A stretch of 64,000 bases of DNA from NCBI GenBank assembly GCA_963715895.1, contig OY970284.1, forward strand, positions 5,167,600-5,231,599, read 5' to 3'. The notes under the pieces were generated by a model. The model worked only from the letters and a program-made list of their open reading frames with translations, ran no database searches and was not told where the DNA came from. The position numbers and the translations under genes are program-made. Positions 3,733 through 62,973 of this stretch are shown in pieces. Position 1 is the stretch's first letter; every line of letters begins with the position of its first letter. The stretch comes from Thermoanaerobaculia bacterium (GTDB taxonomy: Bacteria; Acidobacteriota; Thermoanaerobaculia; Gp7-AA8).

Positions 3733-6700
3733 CTAAGGCAGATCGATCGTCGCCGTCTCCCCCGCCACGATCATCACCGGCAGGCTGCGGATGACCGTCC
3801 GGTCGGCGGCGATCGTCGAAATCAGATAGGAGCCGGGCGGGAGGGAGTCGTAGGGGCCGTTCAGCCCGATCTGGATGGGGCCGAGGAAGCGTTGCGTTAC
3901 GCCGCCGGGGACGTCCAACCGGACCATTTGCGCACTTCGGGCGCGGATCAGCAGCGAACCGGCGCGTGAAATGGCCACGCTCACCTCAGCGGGCGGCGTG
4001 GTGAAACTCATCATCCTCGGGACGTATCCGCGCGCATACGCACTGGCGTTATAACTTCCCGGCTTGAGCCACACTTTGAAGGTGCCCGTATCGACCTTCG
4101 TGGCCTGGCCGTTGAACTTGTGTGCCGCGTCGGTGACTGCCACGTTCCCGTCGACCGGCGAGCCGGTCGTGGCGTCGACGACGTGAATGAGCACCGCCGG
4201 ACCCTCCTCCAAGCGGATCTCGACGTCCGGCACGGCACCGTTGGCGATGACGATCTGCTGGGACGACGTGACGTACTGATCGCTGCTCACGTTCAGATCG
4301 TACGTGGCGTCGGCCAGCGCATCGATGGTGAATCGGCCGTCGGAATCGGTGCTTGTCGACCCGTATGCCGGCAACCGTGAGGTGACGGTGACGCGCGCGC
4401 TCGACACCGGCCCGCCTGTGGATGCATCGACGACATGGCCTCGCAGCAGCGCGCCGCGGATGTCGATGTCGAACGTTCCGCTCGCGGCCACCGTGTATTT
4501 CGTTCCAAAGGCGACGTTGGGAGCATTGACGCGTACGTCGTAGTCACCCGTGGACAGTCCGGAAGCGATGTAGCTGCCGTCGGACGAGATCATGGCATTG
4601 GCCACCTGCCGGTCCGCCGATGGCGGGATGCCCGGCTGCCTGCTCGGCATGAAAAGGACGCTGCCCGTCGTCACCAGCCCGCCGGCGCGGGTCACATGCC
4701 CGCTGACAGTTATCCCCGCGTCGAAATTCATCTCCACCGCCGGCGCAATGCCGTTCTCGATGGTGATGGTCTTTGAAGGCGCCATGCGGCGCTGCCCCGC
4801 CGCATTCAGAAACGCGTCGACCCGCACCCGGCCGTCGGGCATCCCGCTGAGCGTGAAGTTACCGCCGGAGTCGGCGAAGGCCTGATTGCGCGTCGTGTTG
4901 CCCGATGCTGTGACCGTCACCTGCGTGAACTGCTCCGGCGGAATTCCTGTCACCCGTCCGTTGATCGTCGCGCCGGTCTCCATCGTCAGCGTGACCGGTC
5001 CGCTCTGCGGCAGAACGACGTCACTGGCATCCGCGCTTACGTAGCCGTCCTTCCGCGCCGTCACCTTGTAGGTGCCATCCGCGAGTCCCTGCAGGACGAA
5101 CGACCCCTCGCCGTCCGAGCTCACCATCCCCACCGGCCGGCCATCGCCGCCGACCGTGGCCACATTCGCCATGGCGATCCCCTGGCCGGAGTGGTCGACG
5201 ACGCGGCCATGCAGCTCGCGGCCGGGATCGAGCTCGGCATCGAGATGAATGTCCTTCCCTGCCGTGATCGTGACCGGCTTGTGCAGGATGACGAAGCCCT
5301 GCTTCTGAAACTCGATCGTTTGATCCCCTTCCGCCAGCCCTTCGAGCGTGTACAGACCGTCGCCGTCCGTCGTGGCATTGCCGAAGAACGCCGAGCGCTG
5401 GAAGGCCAGGCGTACCTGCGCTCCGGAAACCGGGGCGCTCGCCGCGGTGACGCGGCCGGAGACCGTCGCACCGCGGTCGAGGGAGATATCGATGCCGCTG
5501 ACGGTCTTGCCATCCTCGACCGTGATGTCGCCGCGCGTAGCGGCCACATATCCGGTCGCATGAACCATGAGTTGCAACTGGCCGGGAGGGATATTGTCGA
5601 GGGCGTAGTGGCCATCGTCCGCATGGATCGGCTGACCGCCAGAGAACGAGCTCCCGGGACCGATGACGTTCGGGGTGGTGCGCCCCGGCAGGAGAATCGT
5701 GAAGTCGGTGACCGGCTGCTGCGTGGCCCGATCGAGGATGCGGCCCTCGACGCGTGCCCCCCGAGGCATCGTGATCGTCACATCGCTGGCCGGCGCGGTG
5801 ACGGATCGAGGCGTTGACGAAAGCCGGCGGTCGCTGGAGAACGCCGTGACCATCGTTGCGCCGGGGGCGATGCCCGCGATCCTGAATGTCCCGTCGGAAC
5901 CGGTGTTGGCATTCCGCGGCATGATCCCCGTCGGCGTCTCCACGATGGCATCGGCGACCGGCGTGCCGTCGGCAAGCACCACGCGCCCGCTGATCTCGAT
6001 GCCGCGGTCGACGTGCACGACGACGGTCGCCGTACGCGCGGACAGCACCTGATTCGGCATCCGCACCGGCGCCACGTCGTCGCCGAACACCATCAGATCG
6101 TGGCGTCCTTCGATGGTCCTGACGGCGACCAGTCCCTCCGCGTTGGTGCGGTGACAGTCAGGAAGGGAAGGATCAGCACAGGCGATGAAAGAACGATCCG
6201 CTCCCTGCGCCGCGCTGCGCGAAACGTTCACCTGCGCATTCGGCACGGGACGTTCGCGCTTGTCGAGGACACGCACCTGCGCGACGAAGCCGTGCACGAG
6301 CGTGATGTTGACGTTGTCGCGGACCTCGCCCGGCTGCCAGACTCGCGACGGCGAGCTGCCGGTGACGTAGTCGCGCTTCCATGCATAAACCGGCAACGGC
6401 AGCGAAGAAGCAGTTGTCGTGATACGCACGGCAAATTCGCCGGCCGCATTCGTCGATGTCGATCGCCCGCGCGCGAGGCCGGGGCTGCCCGCGGAGACAA
6501 ATGCTGCCGCCACCGGTTTCTTGTCCTCATCGAGGACATGCCCCCGCGCACGTGCAAACGGCTGCGCCGTAAAGACGCGGCTTCGCTTCGCCGGGAGCGC
6601 GATACTGGCCTGCTCGATCGCAAACGATGGATGCATCCCGTTGACCGAATAGGAGCGCGGGAGAAGCGAAGCGAACGTGAAGCTCCCCTTGGCATCAGTG

Positions 6701-14424: not shown

Positions 14425-16347
14425 CTACTGCGTAATCACCAACTCCACCCTCCGATTCTGCTGCCTTCCCGCGGCCGTCTTGTTCGTCGCGACCGGCGCG
14501 TCCTCTCCGCGGCCGGCGGCGGTGATGTGATCCGACGGGATTCCGGCCGAGACGAGGTAGTCGCGCACGGCGTTGGCGCGCTTCTCGGACAAGGCCTGAT
14601 TCTTCGCCGCGGTGCCGACGGTATCCGTATGCCCTTCGACGGCGATCTTGAGCGACGGGTCGGTCTGGAGCTGTTTGGCGATCTTCGTCAGCGTCGACTT
14701 CGCGCCGGCCTTGAGCGACGTCTTGCCGGTATCGAAAAGGATTCCGCCGCTGAGGGTGACGATGATTCCGCGCTGCTCGCTGCGCGTCGATGCGATCCGG
14801 GCAAGCTCGTTCTGGACCCGCAGAATCCGCGCCTCGGCATCCCGCTCGGCGAGCAACCCCTTCGTTTGGTCGAGCTGGGCCTGGGTCTGTTCCGCCGCCG
14901 CCTTCGTCTGATCGAGCTGCGCCTGGGTCTGTTGCGCTGCCGCCTGCGCCTGTTGCGCGGCAGCCTGGGCCTGCTGCGCTTGAACATTCGCCTGCTGCGC
15001 CTGTGCATTGGCCTGCTGGGCCTCGGCCTGGGCCGCCTGCGCCTGCCGCTCGGCATCCTCCGCCTTCTGTCTCAGCGCGGCCGCCTCGGCGTCGGCCTGC
15101 TGGCGGCGAGCCTGTGCCGCGGCGACCGCTTCGTGACGCTGTCTGGCGCGATCGGATCGCGCCGCGTCGTCGCTTTCGAGCGATTGCCGCAACGAGTCGA
15201 GCTCCGCCTGCCGCGCCAGGAGGTCAGCCTGCCGTTGCGAGATGACGTCGGGGCTGATCGCTCCCGACTGCTGCGCGGCGGTCAGATCGCCGCGCAGGCG
15301 CGTGATCCCGGCCTGCATGGCCTCGGCGTTGGCGCGCTCGCGATCGTGGATCGCGCGCAGCGAAAGCTCCTGATCCTCGATCTGCAGCCGGATGATCTCG
15401 ACATCCGAAGGGGATGAGGTGGCGATCGCGGTCTCATACCTGCTGTACGACTCGTCGAGCTGACGCTCCGCGGCGATGCGCGCCTGACGGTCGGCTTCGA
15501 CGCGTGCTTCCGCGGCCCGCCGATTCTCATCGATCTGCTGCCGCAGCCGTTCCACCTCGGCCGCCTGCGCCTGACGGCTGGCTTGTTCGGCGGCAAGTGC
15601 CTGCTGCAGCGCTATTGACCGGCGCTCCGACTCCTCCCGCTGCGCCCGTTCGGCGGCGGCCTGACGCTCGCTGGCCGCCTGCGCCAGACGGGTGCGATCG
15701 AGCTGGATGCCGGGGAGAGCCCGGTTCGATTGCGCGAGACGGGCGAGATAGAACGCACGCCGCCCGATCATCTCGGCGCGATATGCCAGGTGGTCTCCGA
15801 CATCGCTGTTCGTCGTACTCCGTGATACCCGTTTGGCGCTGTCGATGTATCGCTCGGCGTTCCCGAGGTCGTTGTCCGGAACCAGGTCGAGCGCACCCGC
15901 GTCTTTGGCTCGATCGACCGCCAACTGTGCCGTGGCGATGCGGTCCTTCGTGGTGGCGCCGCGGCTGAATTCGATTGTTGGCGACTCTTCGGCCAGCAAC
16001 GTGATGTTGGACGACCCACCGAAGCGCTGGATGTCGGCCTGCAGACCGTGGATCGCTGTATTCGTGCTCAGCCACCGCGCCTTCGCCCCCGCGGCCTCGG
16101 CGGCGATGGTCGCCTCGATGGCGCGCATCTGCGCCTCATTGCGCCTCGATGGCGTGTTCGAGCTCCAGTTCTCCTGGGCAAAGCGCGCCCGGTACGCCGC
16201 GTCGTCGTAAAGGCTCTTGGCGAACACCTGCGCTCCCGCCGCATCCGCCGACGCGAGCGCCTGTTGCGCCATCACCAGATCCGTCGGCTGCGCCTCTACC
16301 GACACAGCAACCAACATGGCGAGCACTGCCGTTCTCAGGATGTGCAT
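14425..16347 (-). CDS. OmpA-family protein with a long coiled-coil / Q-A-rich region
   Basis: The C-terminal OmpA domain is present (LFDTGKTSLKAGAKSTL...VEGHTDTVGTAAKNQALSEKRANAVRDYL...NRRVELVI). The N-terminal signal peptide is MHILRTAVLAMLVAVSVEA. The central region is AQAAQAEAQQANAQAQQANVQAQQAQAAAQQ. Confidence 0.85.
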   Translation of the reverse strand: MHILRTAVLAMLVAVSVEAQPTDLVMAQQALASADAAGAQVFAKSLYDDAAYRARFAQENWSSNTPSRRNEAQMRAIEATIAAEAAGAKARWLSTNTAIHGLQADIQRFGGSSNITLLAEESPTIEFSRGATTKDRIATAQLAVDRAKDAGALDLVPDNDLGNAERYIDSAKRVSRSTTNSDVGDHLAYRAEMIGRRAFYLARLAQSNRALPGIQLDRTRLAQAASERQAAAERAQREESERRSIALQQALAAEQASRQAQAAEVERLRQQIDENRRAAEARVEADRQARIAAERQLDESYSRYETAIATSSPSDVEIIRLQIEDQELSLRAIHDRERANAEAMQAGITRLRGDLTAAQQSGAISPDVISQRQADLLARQAELDSLRQSLESDDAARSDRARQRHEAVAAAQARRQQADAEAAALRQKAEDAERQAQAAQAEAQQANAQAQQANVQAQQAQAAAQQAQAAAQQTQAQLDQTKAAAEQTQAQLDQTKGLLAERDAEARILRVQNELARIASTRSEQRGIIVTLSGGILFDTGKTSLKAGAKSTLTKIAKQLQTDPSLKIAVEGHTDTVGTAAKNQALSEKRANAVRDYLVSAGIPSDHITAAGRGEDAPVATNKTAAGRQQNRRVELVITQ

Positions 16348-17938: not shown

Positions 17939-18999
17939 TGCGTGGGAGGAGGTGCCGCCTCCTGGTTCCGTTTCTTCTTGCGGCCAAAGACCTGCCAGAG
18001 CTCCCGGCGGCCGAGCAATCCTTGTGGCCGGGTCAGCATCAGGACGATGAGCATGATCGAGTAGATGACCATGCGCGGATCCTTGTCAGCCATCGAATGC
18101 GGCATGAACCCCTTCGCCGCACGCAGCCCCTCCGGGAGGAAGGTGAGGATGATCGCGGCGACGACGGAGCCTGAGATCGAGCCGAGCCCGCCGAGGACCA
18201 CCATGGCCACGACCTCGAACGACTTCTGAAACATGAACGCCGTCGGGTTGAGATACATCGTGTAGTGCGCGTACAGACCGCCTGCCACACCAGCCAGGAA
18301 GGATCCGATGATGAAGGCTTTGACCTTGTAGCGCGTCGTATCCACGCCCATGGCCTCGGCGGCGATCTGATCTTCGCGTACAGCCAGAAAGGCCCGGCCG
18401 ACCGACGAGCGCACCAGCCGCCACGAGATGACGATGGTCAGTCCGCAGACGAGGAAGACCCAGAAGAAATTGCTCCACTGCGGGATGCCGCTGAAGCCGC
18501 GCGCGGCCCCGATCTTGTCGATGTTGAGGATGAACACCCGGATGATCTCGCCGAAGCCCAGGGTGACGATGGCCAGATAATCGCCCCGCAGCCGCAGCGA
18601 CGGCAGACCGACCACGTAGCCTGCAAGAGCCGCGAGCAGCCCTCCGCAGATGACCGCGACGACGAGGAAGACGTTCTGCATCACCCAGTGCAACGTTCCG
18701 GCCGGTATCTTGTCCAGCCGCGGAGCAAAGTGGTAGAAGCTGAGGTAGGCCGCAAAATAGGCGCCGACAGCCATGAATCCCGCGTGGCCGAGCGAAAACT
18801 GCCCGGCATGGCCGTTGATGATGTTCAGCGACACCGCAAGAATGATGTTGATCCCCATGAGGACGAGGATGCGGTTGTAGTAGGCGATTCCGACGATGGG
18901 AATCGCTTCCAACCCGTAGGAAAGTCCGACCAGCACGGCCACGAAGAGAGCCAGCAGGAGGAGGTCGCGGAGCCACCAGGGGATGGATTTGGGGGTCAC
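17935..18999 (-). CDS. livM: Branched-chain amino-acid ABC transporter permease
   Basis: It is a polytopic permease. The track ORF start (19080) translates the GAATGTT repeat (HSTFNIEHSTFNI), so the GTG at 18999 (VTPKSIPWW...) is preferred. Confidence 0.8.
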   Translation of the reverse strand: MTPKSIPWWLRDLLLLALFVAVLVGLSYGLEAIPIVGIAYYNRILVLMGINIILAVSLNIINGHAGQFSLGHAGFMAVGAYFAAYLSFYHFAPRLDKIPAGTLHWVMQNVFLVVAVICGGLLAALAGYVVGLPSLRLRGDYLAIVTLGFGEIIRVFILNIDKIGAARGFSGIPQWSNFFWVFLVCGLTIVISWRLVRSSVGRAFLAVREDQIAAEAMGVDTTRYKVKAFIIGSFLAGVAGGLYAHYTMYLNPTAFMFQKSFEVVAMVVLGGLGSISGSVVAAIILTFLPEGLRAAKGFMPHSMADKDPRMVIYSIMLIVLMLTRPQGLLGRRELWQVFGRKKKRNQEAAPPPTQ

Positions 19000-39372: not shown

Positions 39373-39670
39373 CGGGAAGAGGTGCGGATACGACCGGTCG
39401 ATATTCGCGCCCCTTCCGTTGCGGGGCGCGTCTTCACGCTACCCGCTAGCTGCGGCGAAACCACCACCAGTTGCGCGGCGCGTTCATCGTCCGAGGAGAG
39501 TAACGGCGAAGATCGGGAGTGTCAACTGGGTGAGAATGCAGGCTGAGCGCTCGATCCATTCCGGCGCAAGTCTTGCTGAATCGACGAGTGCTCTTGCGTA
39601 CCGCCGAAAAAAGGAGCATCGTTACAACCTTCCCTGGTCAGTTGTCCCAAGCAGATCGTGGAGGTGCCGC

Positions 39671-42600
39671 GTGGAACTGTCACGTAGGGGTTTCCTGAAG
39701 GCGACGACAATCGGTGGCGCAGTCGCCCTGGGGTTCGATCTCACCAAAGCCCACGCGGAGATGCGGGAGTTCAAAATCTCCCGCACGACCGAGACGCGCA
39801 GCATCTGTCCGTACTGCGCTGTTTCCTGCGGCGTGATCATCCACACGCTCGGCGACCGCTCGAAAAATGCCACCTCCTCGGTGGTGCATATCGAAGGTGA
39901 TCCCGATCATCCGGTCAGCCGCGGCAGCCTCTGTCCCAAGGGCATCACCCTCAAGGACGACATCAACAACACCAACCGCATCACCTCTCCGAAGGTGCGC
40001 CGGCCCGGCTCCGATCACTGGGAGAGCATCAGTTGGGACGACGCCATCGCCGGGATCGCCCGGCACATCAAGGACACCCGCGACCGCTGTTTCGTGGCCA
40101 AGAACGCGGCCGGACAGGTGGTGAACCGCAATCCCGGCATGGCCATGATCGGCGGCTGCACCGATACCAACGAATTCAACTTCCTGCAGTGGAAGGCCAT
40201 CACCGGCCTGGGGGTGCCGTACCGGGATACCCAGGCCAGAGTTTGACACGGCCCCACGGTGGCCAGTTTGGCCGCCACATTTGGCCGTGGAGCGATGACC
40301 AACGGATGGGTCGACATCAAGAACGCCGACGTCATCCTGGCCATGGGCGGTAACCCCGCCGAAAACCATCCTGTCGGCTTCAAGTGGTTCATGGAAGCGA
40401 GGAAGACGCGGGGCGCGAAGATCATCGCCGTCGACCCGCGCTTCACTCGGACGGCAGCGGTGGCCGACCTCCACTCACCCATCCGCTCGGGGACGGACAT
40501 CGCCTACCTGCTTGGCCTGATCCGCTATGCCATCAACACCGGCCGCTTCCATTCCGACTATGTGAAGATCCATACGAACGCGCCTTACATCGTGAACGAC
40601 AAGTACGCGTTCAATGACGGTCTGTTCTCCGGCTTCGATTCCGCCAAGCATCAGTATGTGAAAGACAGTTGGGCGTACGAGGCCGATCCGAAGACGAAGG
40701 GATATACGCTCGATCCTACGCTGCAGCATCCCCGCAGCGTGTTCCAGCTCCTGAAGCAGCACGTCGACCGCTACACGCCGGAGATGGTGGAGCGGATCTG
40801 CGGCACGCCGAAGGAGACCTTCCTGAAGGTCGCCGACATCGTCACCTCCACCGGCAACGCCCAGCGCGTCGGGACGATCACGTACGCGCTGGGATGGACG
40901 CAGCATTCGACCGGCGTCCAGATCATCCGGGCCGGAGCAATGCTGCAGCTCCTTCTCGGTAACGTCGGCAGGCCAGGCGGCGGCGTGAACGCCTTCCGCG
41001 GACACTCGAACATTCAGGGAGCGACCGATACGGCCGGAACGTTCGAGATCCTTCCCGGCTACCTGAAAACACCCGCCGCGGCCGCCCAGACGCTGGCCGA
41101 CTACTACACGGCCGCCGTACCGACCACACTCAACAAAGAGGCGTGGACCTCGATGAACTACTGGGTCAATTACCCGAAGTTCATGGTGTCTCTGCTCAAG
41201 TCCATCTATGGCAACGCCGCGACGAAGGATAACGACTACGGCTACGCCTGGCTCCCCAAGGTGGATGGCAACTATTCGTGGATGTACATCTACGACGACA
41301 TGTACCGCGGCAGCTCGATGCGGGCCGGCGGCAAGGAGCCCGGTCCTGAAGGCTTCATTACCTTCGGCATGAACCCGGTCGGACTGGGGCCCAATTCGAA
41401 GAAGATGATCGCCGCCTTATCGAAGCTGAAGTGGGCGGTGGTGATCGAGAACGTGGAGACAGAGACCGCCCGCTTCTGGAACGCGCCGTCCCAATATGGC
41501 GGCGCGCCGCCGTCCAAGATCCAGACGGAGGTCTACATGCTGCCGGCGGCCTCCTTCGCGGAAAAGGACGGCACGTTCACGAACTCCGCGCGCTGGCTGC
41601 AATGGAAGTGGAAGGCGCTCGATCCGCCCGGACAGGCCAGGAGCGATCAGGAGATCATCTCCCGCATCTTCCTGGCCGTGCAGAACCTCTATCGCAAGGA
41701 AGGTGGCGCGCTTCCCGAGCAGGTGCTGAACGTCAACTGGGCGTACAGCAACCCGACCAACCCCGATCTCTCCGAGGTGTTGAAGGAGATGAATGGGAAA
41801 GCGCTGGCCGACCTTCACGATCCGGCCGATCCGACGAAGGTCCTCAAGACCGCCGGCCAGCAGATCGACGGGTTCGGGCAGCTCATGGACGACGGCTCGA
41901 CAATGTGCGGCAACTGGCTGCACTCGGGCGTGTTCACCGAGGCCGGGAACAACGCGCAGCGCCGCAACAACGCTGATCCGACCGGGCTGGGGATGTTCCC
42001 CACCTGGGCCTTCTCCTGGCCGGCGAACCGGCGGATCATGTACAACCGGGCCTCGGCCGACGCCCAGGGAAATCCGTGGGATCCGACCCGCGTCGGCATC
42101 AAGTGGAACGGCCAGAAGTGGGTCGGCGACGTACCGGACATGAAGCCCGACGCGCCTCCCGGCACCTTCGGCGCCTTCATCATGCTGCCCGAGGGTGTGG
42201 GACGGCTTTACGCCGGCGCGTTGAATGACGGACCGTTCCCCGAACACTACGAGGCCGTTGAGGCTCCGGTCGACAATCCGCTGCATCCGAAGGTGACCTC
42301 CAATCCGACGGCCTTGAAGTTTGCCTCGGACAAAGACGTGATCGGAGACCGGAAGGACTTCCCGATCGTCTGCACGACCTACCGGCTGACCGAGCACTTC
42401 CACTACTGGACGCAGCACCAGCACAAGGGGGTGCTCAACGAGCTGGCGCCGGGATTCTTCGTCGAGATTCCGCAGGCGCTTGCCGATCAGAAGGGAATCG
42501 CGAACGGCTCCAAGGTCAAAGTCACCTCGGCTCGCGGATCGATCGAGGGGACGGCCATGGTCACCAAACGCCTCCGGCCGATGAAGGTCGACGGCAAGGA

Positions 42601-42754
42601 GCTCTGGCAGATCGGTTTCCCGATCCATTGGGGCTTCGCGGGCGATCCCGGCCATACCGGGCCGCTCGCCAACTTCCTGACCGCCTCGGTAGGCGACCCA
42701 AACACATGGACGCCCGAATACAAGGCGTTCCTCGTGAACCTCGACAAGGCGTGA
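39671..42754 (+). CDS. fdnG: Formate dehydrogenase major (alpha) subunit, Tat-exported, selenocysteine-containing (in-frame TGA at 40244..40246)
   Basis: A GTG start follows GGAGG. The Tat signal is VELSRRGFLKATTIGGAVALGFDLTKAHA. The 4Fe-4S motif CPYCAVSCG is present. Track ORFs 39419..40246 and 40259..42754 share a frame and are joined by TGA in the conserved context QARV-U-HGPTVASLAATFGRGAMTN. Confidence 0.9.
40247..40290 (+). promoter_or_regulatory. Candidate bacterial SECIS hairpin
   Basis: The stem GGUGGCC (40258-64) pairs with GGCCGCC (40270-76) around the loop AGUUU. It starts 11 nt after the UGA. An outer pairing CCACGG/CCGUGG (40254-59 with 40285-90) is also possible. Confidence 0.5.
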
Positions 42755-46113: not shown

Positions 46114-46926
46114 TCAGGCAACCTGACCGGCGTAGATGTTGAACCTGCCGTCGCGGACGAAGCCGAGGAGGGTCAGGTTGAACTCGCGGGCCAGATCGAC
46201 GGCCAGCGAGGATGGCGCGCCGACGGAGGCCAGGAGCGGAATGCCGGCTACGATCGCTTTCTGCACTAGCTCGAAGCTGGCGCGGCTGCTGACCATGAGG
46301 ATCCTCCCGGAGAGCGGCGTCGCCCCTTCGCGAAAGAGGGAACCGATCACTTTGTCGACGGCGTTGTGACGGCCGATGTCTTCGCGGGCCCGGAGCAGGT
46401 TCCCGTCATAATCGAAGATCGCGGCGCCGTGAATCCCTCCCGTGGCGCGAAAAGCCGTTTGGTGCTCCTGCAGGACGGACGGAAGACGATGGATGATATC
46501 TCCGCCGATCGATCGTCCCGCGGGCAACATCGTGGCCGCGACGCGGAGCGCATCGATGGAGGTCTTGCCGCAGACGCCGCAACTGGACGTGGTGTAGAAG
46601 TGGCGGTCGAGCTTACTGACGTCGAGCTTCGCGCCTCGATGCAGCGACAGGCGGATGATGTTCGGCGACCCCCAGTGGCGGATGGAATCGATCTCTTCAT
46701 GGGAGCGGATCAGCCCTTCGGTGAAGAGAAAGCCGCTGGCCAGGTCGGCGTCGTCGCCCGGCGTGCGCATCGTCACGGCGATGTTCTTCTCCCGCGCTTC
46801 TCCGCCGGCCTCCCACGCCACGCGGATCTCCAGCGGCTCCTCGACGGCAAGGACGTCGGTATCCTCGGTCGACGCCTGCTGCGTCACCCGGGTCATGGTA
46901 ACGGAGGCGATTCGTTCTTCGGGCAT
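46114..46926 (-). CDS. fdhD: Formate dehydrogenase accessory sulfurtransferase FdhD
   Basis: SSCGVCGK and GRHNAVDK motifs are present. The ATG at 46926 gives 270 aa. The 751-aa track ORF is a read-through artefact. Confidence 0.9.
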   Translation of the reverse strand: MPEERIASVTMTRVTQQASTEDTDVLAVEEPLEIRVAWEAGGEAREKNIAVTMRTPGDDADLASGFLFTEGLIRSHEEIDSIRHWGSPNIIRLSLHRGAKLDVSKLDRHFYTTSSCGVCGKTSIDALRVAATMLPAGRSIGGDIIHRLPSVLQEHQTAFRATGGIHGAAIFDYDGNLLRAREDIGRHNAVDKVIGSLFREGATPLSGRILMVSSRASFELVQKAIVAGIPLLASVGAPSSLAVDLAREFNLTLLGFVRDGRFNIYAGQVA

Positions 46927-46964
46927 CGCTGCGATTGTGAATGAAGTGAGACCTGTATCGTTCT

Positions 46965-47813
46965 CTATTTGACCGCGCCCACAGTGAAGCCCTCGATGAA
47001 CCGGTCGAGAAAGAGGTTGTAGAGGAAGCCGATCGGCAGGCTGGTGATCAGGCACGCCGCCATCAGCGATCCCCAGTAATAGACGTCGCCGCGCACCAGA
47101 AACGTCGGCACACCGACACCGACGGTCTGATGGGCCGCCGAGGAGATGAAGGTCAGCGCGTAGACAAACTCCTGCGTCACCAGGGTAAAGGCGAAGATCA
47201 CCACCGTAAGGATCCCCGACGTCGACATCGGGATCATCAGCTTCACGAACGCGCCCCATTGCGTGAGGCCATCCACCAGTGCCGCATCCTCGAGATCGCG
47301 CGGGATCGATTTGAAGAACCCCATCAGCAGCCAGGTCGAGAACGGGATGGTAAAGGTGGGATAGACGACGATGATCGACCAGAGCGAGTCCTGCAGGCCG
47401 AGGAATGAGACCACCTTTGATAACGGGATGAAGAGCAGCGTCGGCGGCACCAGGTAGGTGAGAAAGACACCGATGCCGAGCTGCGTTCCCCACTGGCCGG
47501 TGAGGCGTGCCAGTGCATACGCGGCCGGCACCGCCAGCAGCAGCGTGATGATCACCACGATCACGCCGGCGAACATCGTGTTCAGGACCCATCGCGGAAA
47601 AAGCGTCTCGTGGAAGAGCAGCCGCAGGTGATCGAGCGTCGGCGGCTCGGTGAAGAGGAACGGATTGTTCTTGAGGTTGTTGAGGTCCGTGTTGCGTTTG
47701 AAGGTGGTGATCAGCATCCAGTAAAACGGGAAGGCCAGCACCACCGCGAAGAAGATCCGCACCAGCCACATCACGATCTTCGGAAGAATCCAGGTCAGCC
47801 GCCGGCGTGCCAT
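46965..47813 (-). CDS. Carbohydrate ABC transporter permease (MalG-like)
   Basis: It is a 6-TM protein with an EAA-like loop (IPRDLEDAALVDGLTQWGAFVKLMIP). Confidence 0.85.
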   Translation of the reverse strand: MARRRLTWILPKIVMWLVRIFFAVVLAFPFYWMLITTFKRNTDLNNLKNNPFLFTEPPTLDHLRLLFHETLFPRWVLNTMFAGVIVVIITLLLAVPAAYALARLTGQWGTQLGIGVFLTYLVPPTLLFIPLSKVVSFLGLQDSLWSIIVVYPTFTIPFSTWLLMGFFKSIPRDLEDAALVDGLTQWGAFVKLMIPMSTSGILTVVIFAFTLVTQEFVYALTFISSAAHQTVGVGVPTFLVRGDVYYWGSLMAACLITSLPIGFLYNLFLDRFIEGFTVGAVK

Positions 47814-48695
47814 CTACGTCACCTCCGCGCGGTGCGCCGAGCGCAGGACGACATAGGCGGCGATGACCAGCAGCGGCACCAGGAAGATCGAGATGGCCGC
47901 CCCCTCCGCCAGGTCGGAGCCGAGGATCCCGGCGAAGAACGCCTCCGTCGGAATCACCTGCGTCGTGTCGTACGGTCCTCCTCGGGTGAGGATATAGATC
48001 ACGGTCATGTCGGTGAAGGTGAAGATCGCCCCGAACAGCACCGCGACGTTGATGATCGGCAGCATCATCGGAATCGTGATCTGAAAGGTCGTACGGAAAA
48101 AGCCCGCACCATCCACCGCCGCGGCCTCGGGGATGTCTTTGGGGATGGCTGTCAGCCCCGCCAGAATGATCACCGTCGCGAACGGCAGCATGTGCCAGGT
48201 GTGCACGAGGATGACCGACATCATGGCCAGCTTCGGTTCGCCTAGCCACATCGGCGTGTCGTATTGATTCACGAGGTGGAACCGCACCAGCACCCAACTG
48301 ATCACGCTGTAGAGCGAGTCGAGGATCCACTTCCATCCGAGGGATCCGATCGACACCGGCGCCACCCACGGCAGCAGGATGAGAAAGCGAAAGAATCGGC
48401 GGCCCGGGAAGGCTTCTCGCAACGAAAGGGCCAGAATGTTCGCGCCGATGAGCACCAGCGCCTGGGAGCTGATGGTAAAGACGAACGAGTTCTGAAGCGC
48501 GCGCCGGAAGGCCGGGTTGTGCAGGATGCTGACGAAGTTCTGCAGGCCGACGAAGTGGTAGGAGACGCTGCCCACTTTGGCGTCGCTCACGCTGTAGAGA
48601 AAGGCCATGACGAAGGGCACGCCGACGAGCGCGACGATGTAAACGATGGCCGGCATGAACATCGCCGGCCCGAGCCAGCGCTGACGCCGGATCAT
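47814..48695 (-). CDS. Carbohydrate ABC transporter permease (MalF-like)
   Basis: It is a 6-TM protein with an EAA-like loop (IPKDIPEAAAVDGAGFFRTTFQITIP). Confidence 0.85.
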   Translation of the reverse strand: MIRRQRWLGPAMFMPAIVYIVALVGVPFVMAFLYSVSDAKVGSVSYHFVGLQNFVSILHNPAFRRALQNSFVFTISSQALVLIGANILALSLREAFPGRRFFRFLILLPWVAPVSIGSLGWKWILDSLYSVISWVLVRFHLVNQYDTPMWLGEPKLAMMSVILVHTWHMLPFATVIILAGLTAIPKDIPEAAAVDGAGFFRTTFQITIPMMLPIINVAVLFGAIFTFTDMTVIYILTRGGPYDTTQVIPTEAFFAGILGSDLAEGAAISIFLVPLLVIAAYVVLRSAHRAEVT

Positions 48696-57287: not shown

Positions 57288-57494
57288 TAACGTTGAATCG
57301 CATGGCTCACTTTAGCGAAGAGAGACCGATCGAGCTTCTAGAGCCGAGGTAGAGGACAGTCTGCCAGTTGATTTTGTCGCTGTACAGGGTCGGCCTGGAT
57401 GCCGAGCTAAGATATCGTCGAAAGGAAATATCCGCGTATGTCCGTAGAGAGAAGGGGCGATCCCGGTTCGATCCCGTTCAGTTCCACCAACCCG

Positions 57495-58253
57495 ATGGAC
57501 CGGCAGCTCTTTCTCGTCCTTGGACTCAACCGCAGCGGCACCTCGGCTCTGACCAAGGCACTGGCGGCGTGTGGCGCCGCGATCGGGTTTCAGCATCCAG
57601 CGCTCGCCACCGGCCTCTGGAAAAATGACCAATGGCATCCCGCCGGCGGCTACGAAAGCCACGAGGTCCCTCCGGTGCTGTGGCTGGTGCGGGAGATCGT
57701 CGATCGCGCCGGCGGCACCCAGGCCAACCCGCTCATCGGCGATGAAATCAGTCTAAGCGTCACGGACACCTTCGCCGTGGCCGGGCTCCTCAACTCCATC
57801 CCTTCGTTCCCGTTCGCGATCAAAGATCCGCTGCTGACGTTCCAATACCGGCAGTGGAAGCAGATTGCGCGCGAGGCGAAGATCGACACGCGCGCTGTCG
57901 TTTCGCTGCGCGACCCGCTGCAGAGCGCGCACGCGCTGCTCAAGCGCCGCTTCTGCCGGACCATTCGCGGCGGTCTGGAACAGTGGCTTCGGTACTACAG
58001 CGAGGTCAAATTCCTCCTCGACGCCGGCGAGCAGCCGATGATCGTCTTCTATGACGGCGACATGGACTCGTACCTGCCGCAGATAGCGGCGCTCTGCGGC
58101 GCGCTCGGCCTGACCTTCGACCGGGAGAAGGTCCGGGGAGGCTTTACTCCCGCCCCGCGCCAGGAGCACGACGCGGGCGAGATGGACCAGCATCCTCTCG
58201 GCGACGCCATCCGCCGGCTGTTCGACGATCTGCGGTCACGCAAACTCGAATAG
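57495..58253 (+). CDS. Sulfotransferase-family protein candidate
   Basis: MDRQLFLVLGLNRSGTSALTKAL resembles the PAPS 5'-phosphosulfate-binding loop (xxRSGTT/S) at the extreme N-terminus. The rest was not assignable by eye. Confidence 0.5.
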   Translation: MDRQLFLVLGLNRSGTSALTKALAACGAAIGFQHPALATGLWKNDQWHPAGGYESHEVPPVLWLVREIVDRAGGTQANPLIGDEISLSVTDTFAVAGLLNSIPSFPFAIKDPLLTFQYRQWKQIAREAKIDTRAVVSLRDPLQSAHALLKRRFCRTIRGGLEQWLRYYSEVKFLLDAGEQPMIVFYDGDMDSYLPQIAALCGALGLTFDREKVRGGFTPAPRQEHDAGEMDQHPLGDAIRRLFDDLRSRKLE

Positions 58254-59408
58254 CGGCCGCAGCAGCATCTCCTGGCCCAAGGTGCGTTTGAGCACGCGCG
58301 GCACGGCGTCGCGGTCACGCTCGCCGCGAAGGATGCCGGCGAGCATGGCGCGCGACTCGGGCGGCAGACGCAATGGGATCGTTCCCTCGGCAGCGAGGCG
58401 CGCGAGCGACTCGGCGACCCATTCCGCCGGATCGGCTTCCGGCAGCAGTTCCGCGAGCGCATCGCGGATCGGCGGCCAGGAGCGGTATGTCAGCAACAGC
58501 GCCAGCAGGATGCGATCCTCCGGTCTGGCCACGCGCGACCACCGGATCGAATAGAAAAGATCGACCTCGTGGCCGGCGTCGGCCATCCCGGCAAACCACG
58601 CCCCCTGATGCTTTGCGCCGAGCGCAACCGTCTCCTCGATCGCCCCCGCCGCGCGCAGGTAGTGCCAGTTCTCGAGCAGGTGCCATACCGCGTCCCACGG
58701 CTGCTCGCGTTTGATCAGCAGGCGGATGTAGTCGAGCCCCTTCGGCGTGGCGCGCAGGCTCTCCGCCATCTTGCGCGTGTAACGGAACCGCTCGGGCACG
58801 GCCACGAAACGCCAGTCCTCGCGCAACACCTGCGTGGCGATGGCCGGCCGAAAGTACTGGAACTGCCGCAGCGCCGGCGTGCGCGGCGGCGTGCGGATGA
58901 CCAGAACGACCGTCGGTTCGTCGAGATGCCACACCTGATGGATGAAGCTGGAGCCCGGATCGATACGCCGCACGTCGCCTTCGCGGATCATTTCGATCGC
59001 GGCCACGCGAAGCTCGCCGGTGCGGACGGCCGGATCGACCCGACCGGCGCCTGCAAAGTCGAAGGTGCCATGCAGGGTCCTTCCCGAAAGGTTGAGAAAG
59101 GCCCCGGCGAAGTCGTGATCGTGCACCACCACCTCGGGCGTGGTGTAGACGTAGACACTGACGAAAAAGCGCGCATTCGACCAGACCGTGAACGCCGACG
59201 GTCCGAACGGTCCGAAGGGATTGCACGCCGCGGGAAAGCGCTGCCGGGACAGCGTCCAGTCGGCGAGCGCGGCGAGATCAAAGGAGCGGTCGGGGCGGGC
59301 CTCCGCGAGCAGGCGCGCCGCGATCCGCGGAAGGTCACGAGGTTTGTAGCCTGCCGCCTTCCACTCCGCATCGATCCGCGCGGCCAGCCGCCGCAGCGCC
59401 GGGACCAT
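58236..59408 (-). CDS. Hypothetical 390-aa protein (possible cupin-like core), divergent from the lasso operon
   Basis: Coding-like composition is present. The segment VVVHDHDFAGAFLNLSGRTLHGTF...IHQVWHL suggests a His-rich metal site. No family was recognised. Confidence 0.5.
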   Translation of the reverse strand: MVPALRRLAARIDAEWKAAGYKPRDLPRIAARLLAEARPDRSFDLAALADWTLSRQRFPAACNPFGPFGPSAFTVWSNARFFVSVYVYTTPEVVVHDHDFAGAFLNLSGRTLHGTFDFAGAGRVDPAVRTGELRVAAIEMIREGDVRRIDPGSSFIHQVWHLDEPTVVLVIRTPPRTPALRQFQYFRPAIATQVLREDWRFVAVPERFRYTRKMAESLRATPKGLDYIRLLIKREQPWDAVWHLLENWHYLRAAGAIEETVALGAKHQGAWFAGMADAGHEVDLFYSIRWSRVARPEDRILLALLLTYRSWPPIRDALAELLPEADPAEWVAESLARLAAEGTIPLRLPPESRAMLAGILRGERDRDAVPRVLKRTLGQEMLLRPLFEFA

Positions 59409-59577
59409 CGTCAGGAGTCTCGCTTACATAATTCCATTCGTCAAGCGCCGCGGCAACCCGCCGTCACCCCCTTGACTGCATGGCCAGCCGATGAGCCGGG
59501 CCATGCCGCACGCGTTTCAAGAAATAAATAGCGAAACCCATTGACACGCACGTGTGTTTTTGTGCACCCTTACGTCT

Positions 59578-59844
59578 ATGCGCGCCGACCCGCGAGTCCG
59601 GCTGGTCATGAAGGACGAAGGCGCGGTATTGCTCCACCTTGGGAACGGCCACTACCAGAGTCTCAACAAGACCGGGGCGCTGATCTGGAAAGAGATCACC
59701 TCCGGTGCCACGCTCGATGAGACGGTGACGCGGCTCTGCAGTCGATTTCCAGCCATTCCCCGGGAGCGCGTCGAAGGGGACGTGCGCGAATTCGTAGCGC
59801 AACTCAAGGAACGCGACCTGGTTGCGCTGGAGACTGAACGATGA
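59578..59844 (+). CDS. Lasso peptide biosynthesis PqqD-family chaperone (B1 / RRE)
   Basis: LVMKDEGAVLLHLGNGHYQSLNKTGALIWKEITSGATLDETVTRLCSRFPAIPRERVEGDVREFVAQLKERDLV is a typical PqqD/RRE fold sequence. It overlaps B2 as ATGA. Confidence 0.85.
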   Translation: MRADPRVRLVMKDEGAVLLHLGNGHYQSLNKTGALIWKEITSGATLDETVTRLCSRFPAIPRERVEGDVREFVAQLKERDLVALETER

Positions 59845-60203
59845 TCGCCGCCTGGCTTCGGCTGGCCGTTGTCGACTTGCTCGTCTCCTTTGGCGGCTTT
59901 CCTCGTCTGCACCGCTTCATGCGCGGCATCGCGGTTCGCCAAACGGAGAAGGCCGCCACGGCCGAGCAGGTCTGCCGCACCCTCGACCGCGCCGCGGTCC
60001 ACTACCCCCGCGAGCTGCAGTGCCTGAAACGCTCTGCGGCGATGACCTGGCTCCTCCGCGCCCGCGGCTACCCCGCGGCGATGATGTTCGGCGCCACCGT
60101 CACTCCGTTCATGGCCCACGCCTGGGTCGAACTCGACGGCCGCGTTATCAGTGAAGACGAGCGGACGATTCGCGGTACCTACGACGTCCTGGACCAATGG
60201 TGA
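59841..60203 (+). CDS. Lasso peptide biosynthesis B2 protein (transglutaminase-like leader peptidase)
   Basis: The catalytic Cys context is RELQCLKRSAAMTWLL and the His context is FMAHAWVELDG. The size of 120 aa fits split-B systems. Confidence 0.85.
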   Translation: MIAAWLRLAVVDLLVSFGGFPRLHRFMRGIAVRQTEKAATAEQVCRTLDRAAVHYPRELQCLKRSAAMTWLLRARGYPAAMMFGATVTPFMAHAWVELDGRVISEDERTIRGTYDVLDQW

Positions 60204-61954
60204 TGGAGCTCTTCGGAACGCTCCATCGCTTTCCTTCCGACTCGGTGACGATGTCTCCGTCGGTCGCGGACGGCGAGCTGGCGATCTCGTTCGACGGCCG
60301 TCTCGACGATCCGAACGACCTCCGTGCCGAGCTCTCGCTTCCGTGGCATGCCGGCAGCGAAGCGATCATCGCCGCCGCGCATCGCCGCTGGAACGACGAC
60401 TTCCTCGCCCACCTCACCGGCGACTTCGCTTTTGCTCTCTGGGACTCACGCACAGCGCGACTTCTCCTGGCGCGCGACTGCTTCGGCGTACGCCCGCTCT
60501 TCTTTCATCGGAGACCCGAGGCCATCACCTGGTCGTCGCGTCTGCAACTGCTGCTCGACTACACCGGCTGCGACCGCACCCCTGACGACGACTACATCGT
60601 CGCCGTCCTGGCCAACGGCGGGCGGCTCGACGTCAGCCCCTACGCCGCCATCGCGGCGGTGCCGCCGGCGAATTTCGTCACGTTCACCCGGGACGGGCAA
60701 TCGACACGCACCTACTGGCGGCTCGATCCCGCAAGCGAGGTCCGCCTCGCTTCCGATGCCGAATACGAGGAGCGGTTTTTCACCCTCTTCCGCAGATCGG
60801 TGCGCAACCGGCTGCAGGCCAAGGGTCCCGTTTTCGCGGAACTGAGTGGTGGCGTCGACTCCTCGTCGATCGCCGCGGCCGCCGACGACGTCATGCGCGG
60901 CGAAGGCCGGCCCAACGACGCGCTGCAGACGGTCTCGCACATCTACGAGGAGACCGCACAATCGGACGACGGCCCCTTCATCGCCATCGCCGAACGAGCG
61001 CTCGGCCGGCCGGCACATCACTTCCTTGAACGCGATGCGCGGATCTTCTCTTCGATCGCCGAAGAGTACCCGTACGAGGCGCCGGCGCCGTACTGGGCCG
61101 GCGCGGAGCTCCGCGCGCGCGTCGCCGCGCGCGTGGCAGAACGCGGGGGCTCGGTAATCCTCAGCGGCCTCGGCGGCGATCACATCTGCTGGAGCGATAC
61201 CGACACGCCTCCGGCCGTCAGCGACCACCTGGCCCGCCTGCGCATCGGAGCGGCGGCGCGGGAGGCCAGGGAGTGGTCCGCCGCGATCGCCGTCCCGCAA
61301 ATGAGAATCCTGGCACGCGCCGCACGGCTGGCCATCGGCGCCCGCTTCGGCCTGCGCCACCACGCTCCGAACCTTCCTCCCTGGCTCGACCCGCGCCTCG
61401 CCAAACGCCGCCCGGGCCTCGACCTCAGCGGGTTTCGTCTCCCCAGCCGGCGGGAGTTCGTGCTGGTCATGCGCGCACTGCTGGATGCGATCCGGCTCCG
61501 GCACTCCGTCGATCCATCCATCGAGGTGCGCTATCCATTCGCCGACCGCGACCTCGTCGAATTCACCTTCGCCCTGCCCATCGAACAGCATCTTCGCCCG
61601 CACGAGATGCGCTCGCTCCAGCGGCGCGCCATGGCCCGCCTGCTGCCGCCGGAGATCGCCCAGCGGAAGTCGAAAGGGGGTCCGGCCAAGGCCATTTACC
61701 TGCGGCTGCGGCAGGTCTGGCCGGCGCTCCGTCCGCTCGTCGAGCGCGAGCGCCTGCGCGTCGTCGAGCGCGGCTACGCCGACCGCGCCATCCTGCTGAA
61801 CGCGCTGCAGCGGGCGGGACACGGACAGAACGTCAACGCGCCCTTCCTGATGCGCGTTCTGGCCGTCGAATTCTGGCTCCGCAAACTGGAACGGGCCGCC
61901 ACGGCCGGCGAATCGCCGCGGCGGAATCCCGCAATCACGACCGAAAGGAGGTGA
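60197..61954 (+). CDS. Lasso peptide isopeptide-bond-forming cyclase (asparagine synthetase-like, C protein)
   Basis: The ATP pyrophosphatase motif ELSGGVDSSSIAAAA is present. The Asn-synthetase B-like architecture spans 585 aa. Confidence 0.9.
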   Translation: MVMELFGTLHRFPSDSVTMSPSVADGELAISFDGRLDDPNDLRAELSLPWHAGSEAIIAAAHRRWNDDFLAHLTGDFAFALWDSRTARLLLARDCFGVRPLFFHRRPEAITWSSRLQLLLDYTGCDRTPDDDYIVAVLANGGRLDVSPYAAIAAVPPANFVTFTRDGQSTRTYWRLDPASEVRLASDAEYEERFFTLFRRSVRNRLQAKGPVFAELSGGVDSSSIAAAADDVMRGEGRPNDALQTVSHIYEETAQSDDGPFIAIAERALGRPAHHFLERDARIFSSIAEEYPYEAPAPYWAGAELRARVAARVAERGGSVILSGLGGDHICWSDTDTPPAVSDHLARLRIGAAAREAREWSAAIAVPQMRILARAARLAIGARFGLRHHAPNLPPWLDPRLAKRRPGLDLSGFRLPSRREFVLVMRALLDAIRLRHSVDPSIEVRYPFADRDLVEFTFALPIEQHLRPHEMRSLQRRAMARLLPPEIAQRKSKGGPAKAIYLRLRQVWPALRPLVERERLRVVERGYADRAILLNALQRAGHGQNVNAPFLMRVLAVEFWLRKLERAATAGESPRRNPAITTERR

Positions 61955-61961
61955 AATCAAA

Positions 61962-62108
61962 ATGACGGAAAGAAAGGAAGAAGAAGGCTACGAAGCGCCT
62001 GAGATCTTCGAGCTCGGCCGCGCCGAGGAACTGACGCTCGGCAAACCGATGGGCGGATGGCCCGACGACTTCGAGCAGTTCATCAAGCCGCAGCCGCCGT
62101 ACTGCTGA
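61962..62108 (+). CDS. Lasso peptide precursor (A peptide), 48 aa; not in the ORF track
   Basis: The translation is MTERKEEEGYEAPEIFELGRAEELTL|GKPMGGWPDDFEQFIKPQPPYC. AAAGGAGG lies 9 nt upstream. The leader has Y-17, P-14, I-12, G-8 and T-2. The core starts with Gly and has Asp at position 9. Confidence 0.8.
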   Translation: MTERKEEEGYEAPEIFELGRAEELTLGKPMGGWPDDFEQFIKPQPPYC

Positions 62109-62115
62109 TGGCGCC

Positions 62116-62144
62116 CGAGGTGCCCTGTCCCGCAGGGCACCTCG
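62116..62144 (+). terminator. 12-bp hairpin immediately after the precursor gene
   Basis: The hairpin is CGAGGTGCCCTG-TCCCG-CAGGGCACCTCG. No U-tract follows. Confidence 0.55.
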
Positions 62145-62238
62145 TCTAGCGGTCACGGTCGCCGGTTCCCTCCGCTTTGCGTATCATTCGGAAGCGTTAC
62201 AGAAGCTTTCTTGTAACGACCGGCATCGGAGGTGACAC

Positions 62239-62973
62239 ATGAGAATCGTCTGGATCGTGACCGCACTCCTCGTAATTTCCGCCTCGGCGTTTGCGCAACC
62301 CTCCGGCCAGTACCTCCGGATGCAGGGCTTTCCGCAACACGGTTATATCGAGATCCCCGATGACGTCCTGCTCGACACCCCCTCGATGACGGTCGAGGCC
62401 TGGGTCTCGGTTCGTGACGCGCACGGCGGTACGGGCTGCTCCTCGATCGCGGGGAAGGGATTCCAGACCGGTTGGTGGCTCGGACTGTGCGGCACGACGA
62501 TGCGCAGCTACTTCAACGGCTCGTCAAGCCTCAGGGACGGCGGCGTCATCCCGGATGTGCCCACCACCGTCTGGATCCACATCGCGGCCGTGACGGATGA
62601 GACGACACACACACGCAAACACTACATCAACGGAAATCTCGTGTCCCAGGGAGCAGAGGCTCCCCGGTCCGTGTCGACGCTCCCCATGCGCATCGGGAGC
62701 GACCCGAACTGGGACTTCATGCCCGAGGGAGGCATCGACGACTTGAGGATCTGGAAGGTTGCCCGGACGCAGGAGCAGATTCGCCAGACCATGTTTACGG
62801 GCTTCATTCCGGAAGCGAACGACGTCACCGGCGTGTTCCAGGGACTCGAAGCCTGGTACCGATTCGAAGGCAACGCCTTTGACTCGTGGCGTACGCACCA
62901 CGGAACGATCGTCGGAACCGGAATCAGCTTCGCCCAAGCCCCCCCCTTCCGGCGGCACTCGGCGGGACACTGA
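62239..62973 (+). CDS. Secreted LamG / concanavalin-A-like lectin domain protein
   Basis: The signal peptide is MRIVWIVTALLVISASAFAQP. Typical LamG strings are present (MTVEAWV..., WIHIAAV..., GGIDDLRIWKVARTQEQIRQ). Confidence 0.6.
   Translation: MRIVWIVTALLVISASAFAQPSGQYLRMQGFPQHGYIEIPDDVLLDTPSMTVEAWVSVRDAHGGTGCSSIAGKGFQTGWWLGLCGTTMRSYFNGSSSLRDGGVIPDVPTTVWIHIAAVTDETTHTRKHYINGNLVSQGAEAPRSVSTLPMRIGSDPNWDFMPEGGIDDLRIWKVARTQEQIRQTMFTGFIPEANDVTGVFQGLEAWYRFEGNAFDSWRTHHGTIVGTGISFAQAPPFRRHSAGH

Follow-up and report, generated by a model that had tools for sequence, protein, structure and literature searches.

A predicted lasso peptide precursor gene closing a B1-B2-C-A operon in an uncharacterised soil-bacterial family

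Does a 48-aa open reading frame that directly follows a lasso-type cyclase gene encode the precursor of a lasso peptide and, if so, at which residue would the ring close, and would the product be modified further by genes nearby? The frame lies in a window of 64,000 nucleotides, the term window denoting here the whole stretch of DNA that was analysed. Lasso peptides combine a very stable scaffold with activities as antibiotics, enzyme inhibitors or receptor antagonists, and to our knowledge nearly all characterised lasso peptides come from Proteobacteria, Actinobacteria and Firmicutes. We consider it highly likely that the frame is the precursor (A) gene of a B1-B2-C-A lasso operon and that its product is matured along the pathway proposed below.

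The precursor gene and the operon upstream

The gene content and layout observed at the locus are the following.

59554..59844, plus strand: B1, a PqqD-like RiPP recognition element (leader-binding chaperone) of 96 aa, whose stop overlaps the B2 start by 4 nt
59841..60203, plus strand: B2, a transglutaminase-like leader peptidase of 120 aa, which overlaps the C start by 7 nt
60197..61954, plus strand: C, an asparagine-synthetase-like lasso cyclase (ATP-dependent macrolactam synthetase) of 585 aa with an SGGVDSS ATP-binding motif
61946..61953, plus strand: Shine-Dalgarno element AGGAGGTG, 8 nt before the precursor ATG and overlapping the C stop codon
61962..62108, plus strand: precursor (A) gene of 48 aa with an ATG start and a TGA stop at 62106..62108
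61962..62039, plus strand: predicted leader peptide MTERKEEEGYEAPEIFELGRAEELTL, 26 codons
62040..62105, plus strand: predicted core peptide GKPMGGWPDDFEQFIKPQPPYC, 22 codons
62116..62144, plus strand: G+C-rich hairpin with a 13-bp stem and a 3-nt loop, directly after the precursor stop
61935..62156, minus strand: antisense ORF of 73 aa, with a GC3 atypical of genes

Retranslation of the precursor gene gave MTERKEEEGYEAPEIFELGRAEELTLGKPMGGWPDDFEQFIKPQPPYC, identical to the sequence quoted in the original prediction, and its ATG is the earliest possible in-frame start after the preceding stop codon. The original prediction also called the gene hidden, which is correct relative to an ORF track with a 60-aa cut-off; however, the 48-aa protein is already a called protein in a public protein collection, and it exceeds the cut-off of a curated lasso leader model, so that standard annotation would already name the gene.

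The three genes upstream lie on the same strand, intact and overlapping, and the precursor starts 7 nt downstream of C. B1 passes Pfam PqqD (67.2 bits, cut-off 23.4), reaches 59.7 bits with NCBIfam lasso_PqqD_Strm, below the cut-off of 70, and is 50-63% identical to the B1 genes of related loci. B2 matches Pfam Transglut_core3 (79 bits) and NCBIfam NF033537 lasso_biosyn_B2 (75.5 bits, cut-off 33). C passes Pfam Asn_synthase (134.5 bits) as well as GATase_7, and among NCBIfam models it scores highest with the lasso isopeptide cyclase NF033535, where its 235 bits stay below the strict 'exception' cut-off of 525. Neither a transporter nor an isopeptidase gene was found next to these genes. As annotated, the locus is a complete four-gene B1-B2-C-A lasso peptide operon.

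The precursor itself carries a lasso leader. Counting from the Leu-Gly junction confirmed the register originally given, namely Y-17, P-14, I-12, G-8 and T-2, with Ile replacing the Leu of the lasso leader recognition motif YxxPxL...G (PMC6784204). NCBIfam NF033521 lasso_leader_L3 matches residues 10-27 with 24.5 bits against a cut-off of 19. All three features that mark a lasso precursor were found here: the recognition motif together with Thr at -2, a core with Gly first and an acidic residue at one of positions 7 to 9 (Gly1 and Asp9), and adjoining genes for B1, the B2 peptidase and an Asn-synthetase-like cyclase. Other curated models gave less. Pfam DUF5974 (PF19399) aligns with residues 14-31 only, at 19.6 bits, below its gathering threshold of 38.5, and the NCBIfam benenodin and albusnodin subfamilies (cut-offs 33 and 30 bits) left the precursor unmatched at E<=0.1; sibling peptides from related loci score merely 13-25 bits with these two. 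The combination of the leader motif and a tail of 12-30 aa in which core position 7, 8 or 9 is acidic has a single instance in the window, and none of 300 windows simulated from a second-order Markov model contained it.

Leader binding, cleavage and cyclisation follow one scheme in the established lasso pathway, from which we infer the course of processing at this locus. The 48-aa peptide would be translated from the ribosome-binding site lying across the 3' end of C, and its leader motif YxxPxI...G...T would be bound by the PqqD-like B1. The B2 cysteine peptidase would then cleave after Leu-1, with Thr at -2 as recognition residue, and so free Gly1; finally, C would adenylate the Asp9 side chain and couple it with the Gly1 amine as the tail passes through the ring.

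The predicted ribosome-binding site is strong, and an (A/G)GGAGGTG Shine-Dalgarno element precedes every homologous precursor. On the 3' side, the hairpin region (a 71-nt segment) folds with -38.4 kcal/mol and z = -4.2, and none of 200 shuffles is as stable. Its stem sequence recurs after the precursor of the nearest relative, L257. A U-tract is absent after the hairpin, which may therefore be a terminator or a transcript-stabilising structure; a scan for canonical intrinsic terminators called none near the precursor gene, the hairpin included. Just 3' of the hairpin lies a gene for a secreted LamG/concanavalin-like protein (62239..62973, plus strand). No homologue of it was found in any related locus, and it is thus probably outside the cluster.

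The antisense ORF that the original prediction described over the precursor is indeed present, and it raises the possibility that the sense ORF is silent and that the real gene is the antisense one, or that there is none at all in a decayed or silent cluster. An antisense frame is open in L257 as well, and a sigma-70 scan showed no promoter-like site near the precursor gene. However, open antisense frames are expected at 63-69% G+C, and this one has no match to a Pfam family; its GC3 of 0.61 lies below that of the sense ORF (0.78) and of the neighbouring genes (0.73-0.84). The nucleotide differences between the precursor and that of L257, which number 9, 6 and 16 on sense codon positions 1, 2 and 3, suit the sense frame, as do the conserved Shine-Dalgarno element and peptide homologues, and none of the overlapping genes B1, B2 and C is disrupted. 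Hardly any likelihood is left to the silent or antisense reading, and the sense ORF is taken as the gene in what follows.

Two further features of the window, upstream of the operon, were observed. At 39419..42754 on the plus strand lies the gene for a selenocysteine formate dehydrogenase alpha subunit, which the ORF lists split in two; it has an in-frame TGA at 40244..40246 and an Rfam SECIS_3 element at 40241..40299 (76.7 bits), and it is followed by genes for Fe-S and transmembrane subunits, with an FdhD gene nearby; such an arrangement is ordinary. In addition, a 751-aa ORF at 46114..48369 on the minus strand has an FdhD/NarQ domain confined to its last ~240 residues; nothing in Pfam matches the long extension on the N-terminal side, and the ORF may be an over-long call in G+C-rich DNA.

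Homologous precursors, ring position and tail

A direct, word-indexed homologue search with the 48-aa peptide returned only the window's own protein, and relatives were therefore reached through the cyclase. This gave a clade of 20 metagenomic homologues that are 48-74% identical to C, the highest value being that of L257; among species-representative genomes, no cyclase was found above ~36% identity. All relatives on long enough contigs show the order B1-B2-C followed by a gene of 41-49 aa. In this way 17 distinct homologous precursors were obtained, each directly downstream of a cyclase in this identity range. Their leader consensus is YExPE[VI]x[ED][LIVM]GxAxxLTx, and their cores start with G-x-x-x-G-x-[WF]-P-[DE], three of them being one residue shorter before [WF]-P. 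At 9-14 of the 17 leader motif positions, the window precursor is identical to the individual relatives (16 compared). The precursor clade thus observed has at least 18 related members, which are known only from soil metagenomes and none of which is characterised.

A family profile was built from 16 of the 17 relatives, with the window peptide left out, and compared with the 1,391 ORF segments of the window. The precursor was found with E=1.6e-17 and the runner-up with E=0.9, a gap which indicates that the window holds a single precursor, that at 61962..62108; no second one was found within the window. The risk raised originally, that a better-scoring precursor might exist elsewhere in the cluster, can therefore be dismissed, as no other ORF segment beats E=0.9. 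Together with the NF033521 match, the B1, B2 and C genes upstream and the likewise placed homologues, this result supports the lasso precursor identity that was first proposed.

Two features within the core bear on the structure of the product.

62064..62066, plus strand: GAC codon of Asp9, which is predicted to accept the Gly1 amine in the isopeptide bond, in an aligned column that is always Asp or Glu
62100..62105, plus strand: Tyr21-Cys22 codons TAC TGC, a lineage-specific C-terminal extension

The core has Gly1, Asp9, Asp10, Phe11, Phe14 and a lone Cys as last residue, all as originally described, and the macrolactam had been placed between Gly1 and Asp9. Comparison supports this placement. 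Directly behind the conserved [WF]-P, 17 of 17 relatives have Asp or Glu, and position 10 is taken by L, G, V, A, S or H, with His in L257. An invariant acidic column followed by a variable one points to Asp9, not Asp10, as the acceptor. Over the ring segment, GKPMGGWPD, the window core is 8/9 identical both to L012 (GKPMGDWPD) and to L257 (GNPMGGWPD), in the latter case despite 4 nucleotide changes.

The ring might instead close elsewhere, either as a 10-residue Gly1-Asp10 ring or after cleavage at another site, for example from Gly5 or Gly6 to Glu12. Both Asp10 and Glu12 do stand in the core, and Glu12 also occurs in L257. However, none of the 17 relatives has an acidic residue at position 10 and only a minority has one at position 12, and no junction other than Thr-Leu/Gly gives Thr at -2 with the leader motif in register. 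Furthermore, natural lasso rings have been described with 7-9 residues only (PMC6784204; PMC8498205). Closure at another residue is consequently scarcely more probable than the silent or antisense reading above, and the Gly1-Asp9 ring is retained. The predicted product is a 22-residue class II lasso peptide with a 9-residue Gly1-Asp9 ring, a 13-residue loop and tail, and a monoisotopic mass of 2518.145 Da. Assignment to class II, as the classes are defined in PMC6784204, follows from the single Cys in the core, with which no intramolecular disulfide can form.

Both Phe11 and Phe14 had been proposed as plugs. The second proposal fares better than the first, because the profile alignment puts Phe14, not Phe11, on the conserved Trp of the family; by this alignment, Phe14 would be the most likely upper plug. 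It should be noted that the window tail, DFEQFIKPQPPYC, departs from the conserved W-x-F ending of the family, and threading and plug residues are therefore less predictable here than in the relatives.

The tail is also a family outlier in length, as the cores of other close relatives end at 17-20 residues. In the alignment with L257 (2144..2224 compared), whose tail is GNPMGGWPDHWEQWSKVQNP, the TAA stop of this relative stands exactly opposite the TAC (Tyr21) of the window, which is then followed by TGC (Cys22) and TGA. A one-base difference at the stop codon thus explains the extra Tyr-Cys, and since other relatives also stop nearby, the extension is probably derived. Judged from these aligned codons, Tyr-Cys is likely a stop-loss extension of a RiPP core, and the terminal Cys appears as incidental, not as a family feature. 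The emphasis that the original prediction placed on the C-terminal Cys is therefore not sustained, the nearest relative lacking these two residues altogether. A precedent for a single terminal Cys in class II peptides is albusnodin, whose core has its lone Cys at the very end (GQGGGQSEDKRRAYNC; PMC12427821, Table 1). However, albusnodin needs an acetyltransferase, has a non-YxxP leader and shows no sequence similarity to the window precursor, in which the Cys belongs to a non-conserved two-residue extension.

Some related clusters show variations of their own. Two or three tandem precursor genes occur in L098 (5743..6330), L140 and L176 (2310..2664, minus strand), and in some of the tandem-precursor cores the ring segment is shorter by one residue (GKGDDWPD, GGGGDWPD, GRCGDWPD), which would mean that a single cyclase makes rings of both 8 and 9 residues. 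In L007 (7781..7918; the same as L094), Phe and not Gly stands right after the T-x cleavage motif, together with Glu9 (FNQFADWPEVVGVRFIFSP); a Phe1 lasso core, as predicted here, would be unusual.

The two-gene cassette beside the operon

Upstream of B1 lie two genes that might be connected with the operon.

58236..59408, minus strand: conserved protein of 390 aa with a thiol-dioxygenase-fold cupin (~residues 60-200) and flanking helical domains, divergent from B1 across a 145-bp gap
57438..58253, plus strand: sulfotransferase-superfamily-like protein of 271 aa, convergent with the 390-aa gene, with an 18-nt overlap

Each is a candidate accessory gene, the 390-aa gene possibly a tailoring gene, and the link of each to the cluster is putative. 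The 390-aa protein has no match in Pfam, NCBIfam or PDB sequences, and none to Pfam CDO_I, PCO_ADO or PDB sequences even at E<=10. Its AF2 model (pLDDT 86, pTM 0.84) shows a central cupin barrel, and with this model each of the top 50 Foldseek hits in the PDB is a thiol dioxygenase, with E values as low as 1e-7. The enzymes of this group (CDO, MDO, ADO and those acting on ergothioneine and mercaptosuccinate) resemble the model in the cupin fold, with a TM of about 0.6 on the target. Three His of the 390-aa protein, H96, H98 and H157, stand in HxH...H spacing, are invariant across 36 homologues and are candidates for a three-His iron site of the thiol dioxygenase kind. There are also differences: the 390-aa protein has about twice the length of a thiol dioxygenase, it has extra helical domains, and most of the peptides associated with it are without Cys. 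The family comprises about 90 clusters, all annotated as hypothetical proteins, mainly from MAGs of Thermoanaerobaculia and Vicinamibacterales.

The 271-aa protein scores 16.3 bits with Pfam Sulfotransfer_3, below the cut-off of 27 and over the N-terminal PAPS-loop region only. Two distant phmmer relatives, P0224 and P0226, pass this model with 30.3 and 35.2 bits, and as only such distant relatives pass, the sulfotransferase relationship is transitive only. Homologues that are 57-88% identical adjoin the 390-aa gene in six other loci (L258, L259, L260, L263, L267 and L175).

This raises the possibility that the lasso is made and then modified by these two proteins, so that the product is not a plain class II peptide; Cys22 thiol oxidation, or hydroxylation followed by sulfation, would be possible modifications. 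The three-His set and the fold of the 390-aa protein are consistent with such a role, but there is no sequence-level match to thiol dioxygenases. The pair is syntenic with the cluster, in the arrangement of the window, in the nearest relatives L258, L259 and L260. In a sister subclade, a 390-aa homologue and a Methyltransf_21 gene flank the cluster in three arrangements, and in L098 they are co-directional with the precursors and lie just after them. More generally, the 390-aa gene is nearly always beside a transferase gene, which is Methyltransf_21 at 11 loci and the 271-aa homologue at 7 loci including the window; neither a LanB nor a Methyltransf_21 gene was found in the window itself.

The cassette, in this wider sense, stands beside lasso clusters in the window, L259, L176, L012, L098 and L099, and beside LanB or LanB/LanC genes in L262, L263, L264, L267, L174, L175 and L269, with L012 having both. 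Its occurrence next to two kinds of RiPP cluster speaks for a tailoring role; against it stand L173, L261 and L266, where the cassette has neither a lasso nor a LanB gene within the fetched flanks.

A further point concerns the C-termini of the associated precursors. Cys-Pro forms the C-terminus of each of the six lanthipeptide-type precursors that adjoin the cassette.

L269, 13737..13895, minus strand: Pro-ending lanthipeptide-type precursor
L264, minus strand: two Pro-ending lanthipeptide-type precursors, ending near 15870 and near 18036
L263, minus strand: Pro-ending lanthipeptide-type precursor, ending near 15487
L175, 351..590: Pro-ending lanthipeptide-type precursor
L267: Pro-ending lanthipeptide-type precursor, ending at 5421

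Among the cassette-linked lasso precursors, 7 of 8 end in Pro, as Ala-Pro or Asn-Pro (those listed being from L012, L098, L176 and L257). A C-terminal Pro is thus found in 13 of 14 cassette-linked precursors as compared with 1 of 6 cassette-free lasso relatives, in a sample of about 20 loci and with no correction for shared ancestry. The sole exception among the cassette-linked precursors is the window peptide, which breaks the pattern because of its Tyr-Cys extension.

Oxidation of Cys22 by the thiol-dioxygenase-fold protein was considered and is largely rejected, as most cassette-linked cores, and that of L257, have no Cys. With Cys missing from most of these lasso cores and Cys22 itself non-conserved, a Cys-directed role of the family is unlikely. 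Overall, modification of the window's lasso by the two proteins seems improbable, although far more credible than closure of the ring at another residue. A RiPP tailoring role of the cassette in general is about equally doubtful, and slightly more doubtful again is the specific proposal that it is an undescribed tailoring set common to lasso and class I lanthipeptide clusters of Acidobacteriota-type bacteria, from whose MAGs the loci with the cassette come, acting C-terminally. The plain class II lasso remains the preferred product. If the proposal were true, the cassette would modify the window tail, possibly at Tyr-Cys, and the result would be a modified lasso of a new kind.

Relation to known lasso systems and significance

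The operon shows similarities to the split-B clusters of Actinobacteria (fusilassin/fuscanodin, lariatin and propeptin type), but there are also differences. Common to both are the separate PqqD-like B1 and transglutaminase-like B2, the asparagine-synthetase-like C, the YxxP...G...T-x leader register, Gly1 and an acidic residue 9. In contrast, the order here is B1-B2-C-A with the precursor last, there is no adjacent D transporter, the leader of the window clade has Ile or Val where the published split-B motif has Leu, and the source lineage looks like Acidobacteriota or related soil bacteria, going by the names on relatives. An acyl-CoA synthetase gene, used as a further taxonomic marker, gave top hits at 71-73% that are scattered among MAGs of Chloroflexota, Acidobacteriota and Gemmatimonadota. 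Lasso clusters with B1-B2-C-A order and small, manually annotated precursors have been described on soil fosmids assigned to Acidobacteria, with no product reported (PMC9064862); these are likened to the present operon by gene order only.

When the core was compared with the 57 characterised lasso cores of Table 1 in PMC12427821, the best matches were propeptin and BI-32169, with about 7/22 identities and low alignment scores. Gly1, Pro3 and Asp9 are common to the window core and both of these peptides, and propeptin, BI-32169 and RES-701-1 have the same predicted ring size and acceptor (a 9-residue Gly1-Asp9 ring). Furthermore, RES-701-1 and relatives of the window precursor such as that of L096 have G-x-x-x-G-T-x-P-D in common. 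However, the tails of all three known peptides are unrelated to the window tail, and shared ancestry is unsupported beyond the class. A propeptin-like ancestry was thus rejected, the resemblance of about 7/22 identities being too weak. In the literature searched, none of the core motifs GDWPD, GGWPD and WPDGL occurred in connection with lasso peptides, nor did any paper link these peptides to cysteine dioxygenases or cupin enzymes.

The class to which the peptide is assigned is a known one, and what is new is a member of an uncharacterised soil-bacterial family, not the class. As standard models already flag the gene, this is a routine genome-mining find. What the comparison adds is support for the ring, the demonstration that the terminal Cys is incidental, and a recurrent two-gene cassette beside RiPP clusters. 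None of the 57 characterised cores closely resembles the clade, whose conserved ring pattern is G-x-x-x-G-x-W-P-D. Finally, it should be noted that the window comes from a 6.6-Mb contig and may therefore offer a tractable source strain or a clean DNA template, with which heterologous production of this predicted lasso peptide would be straightforward to attempt.
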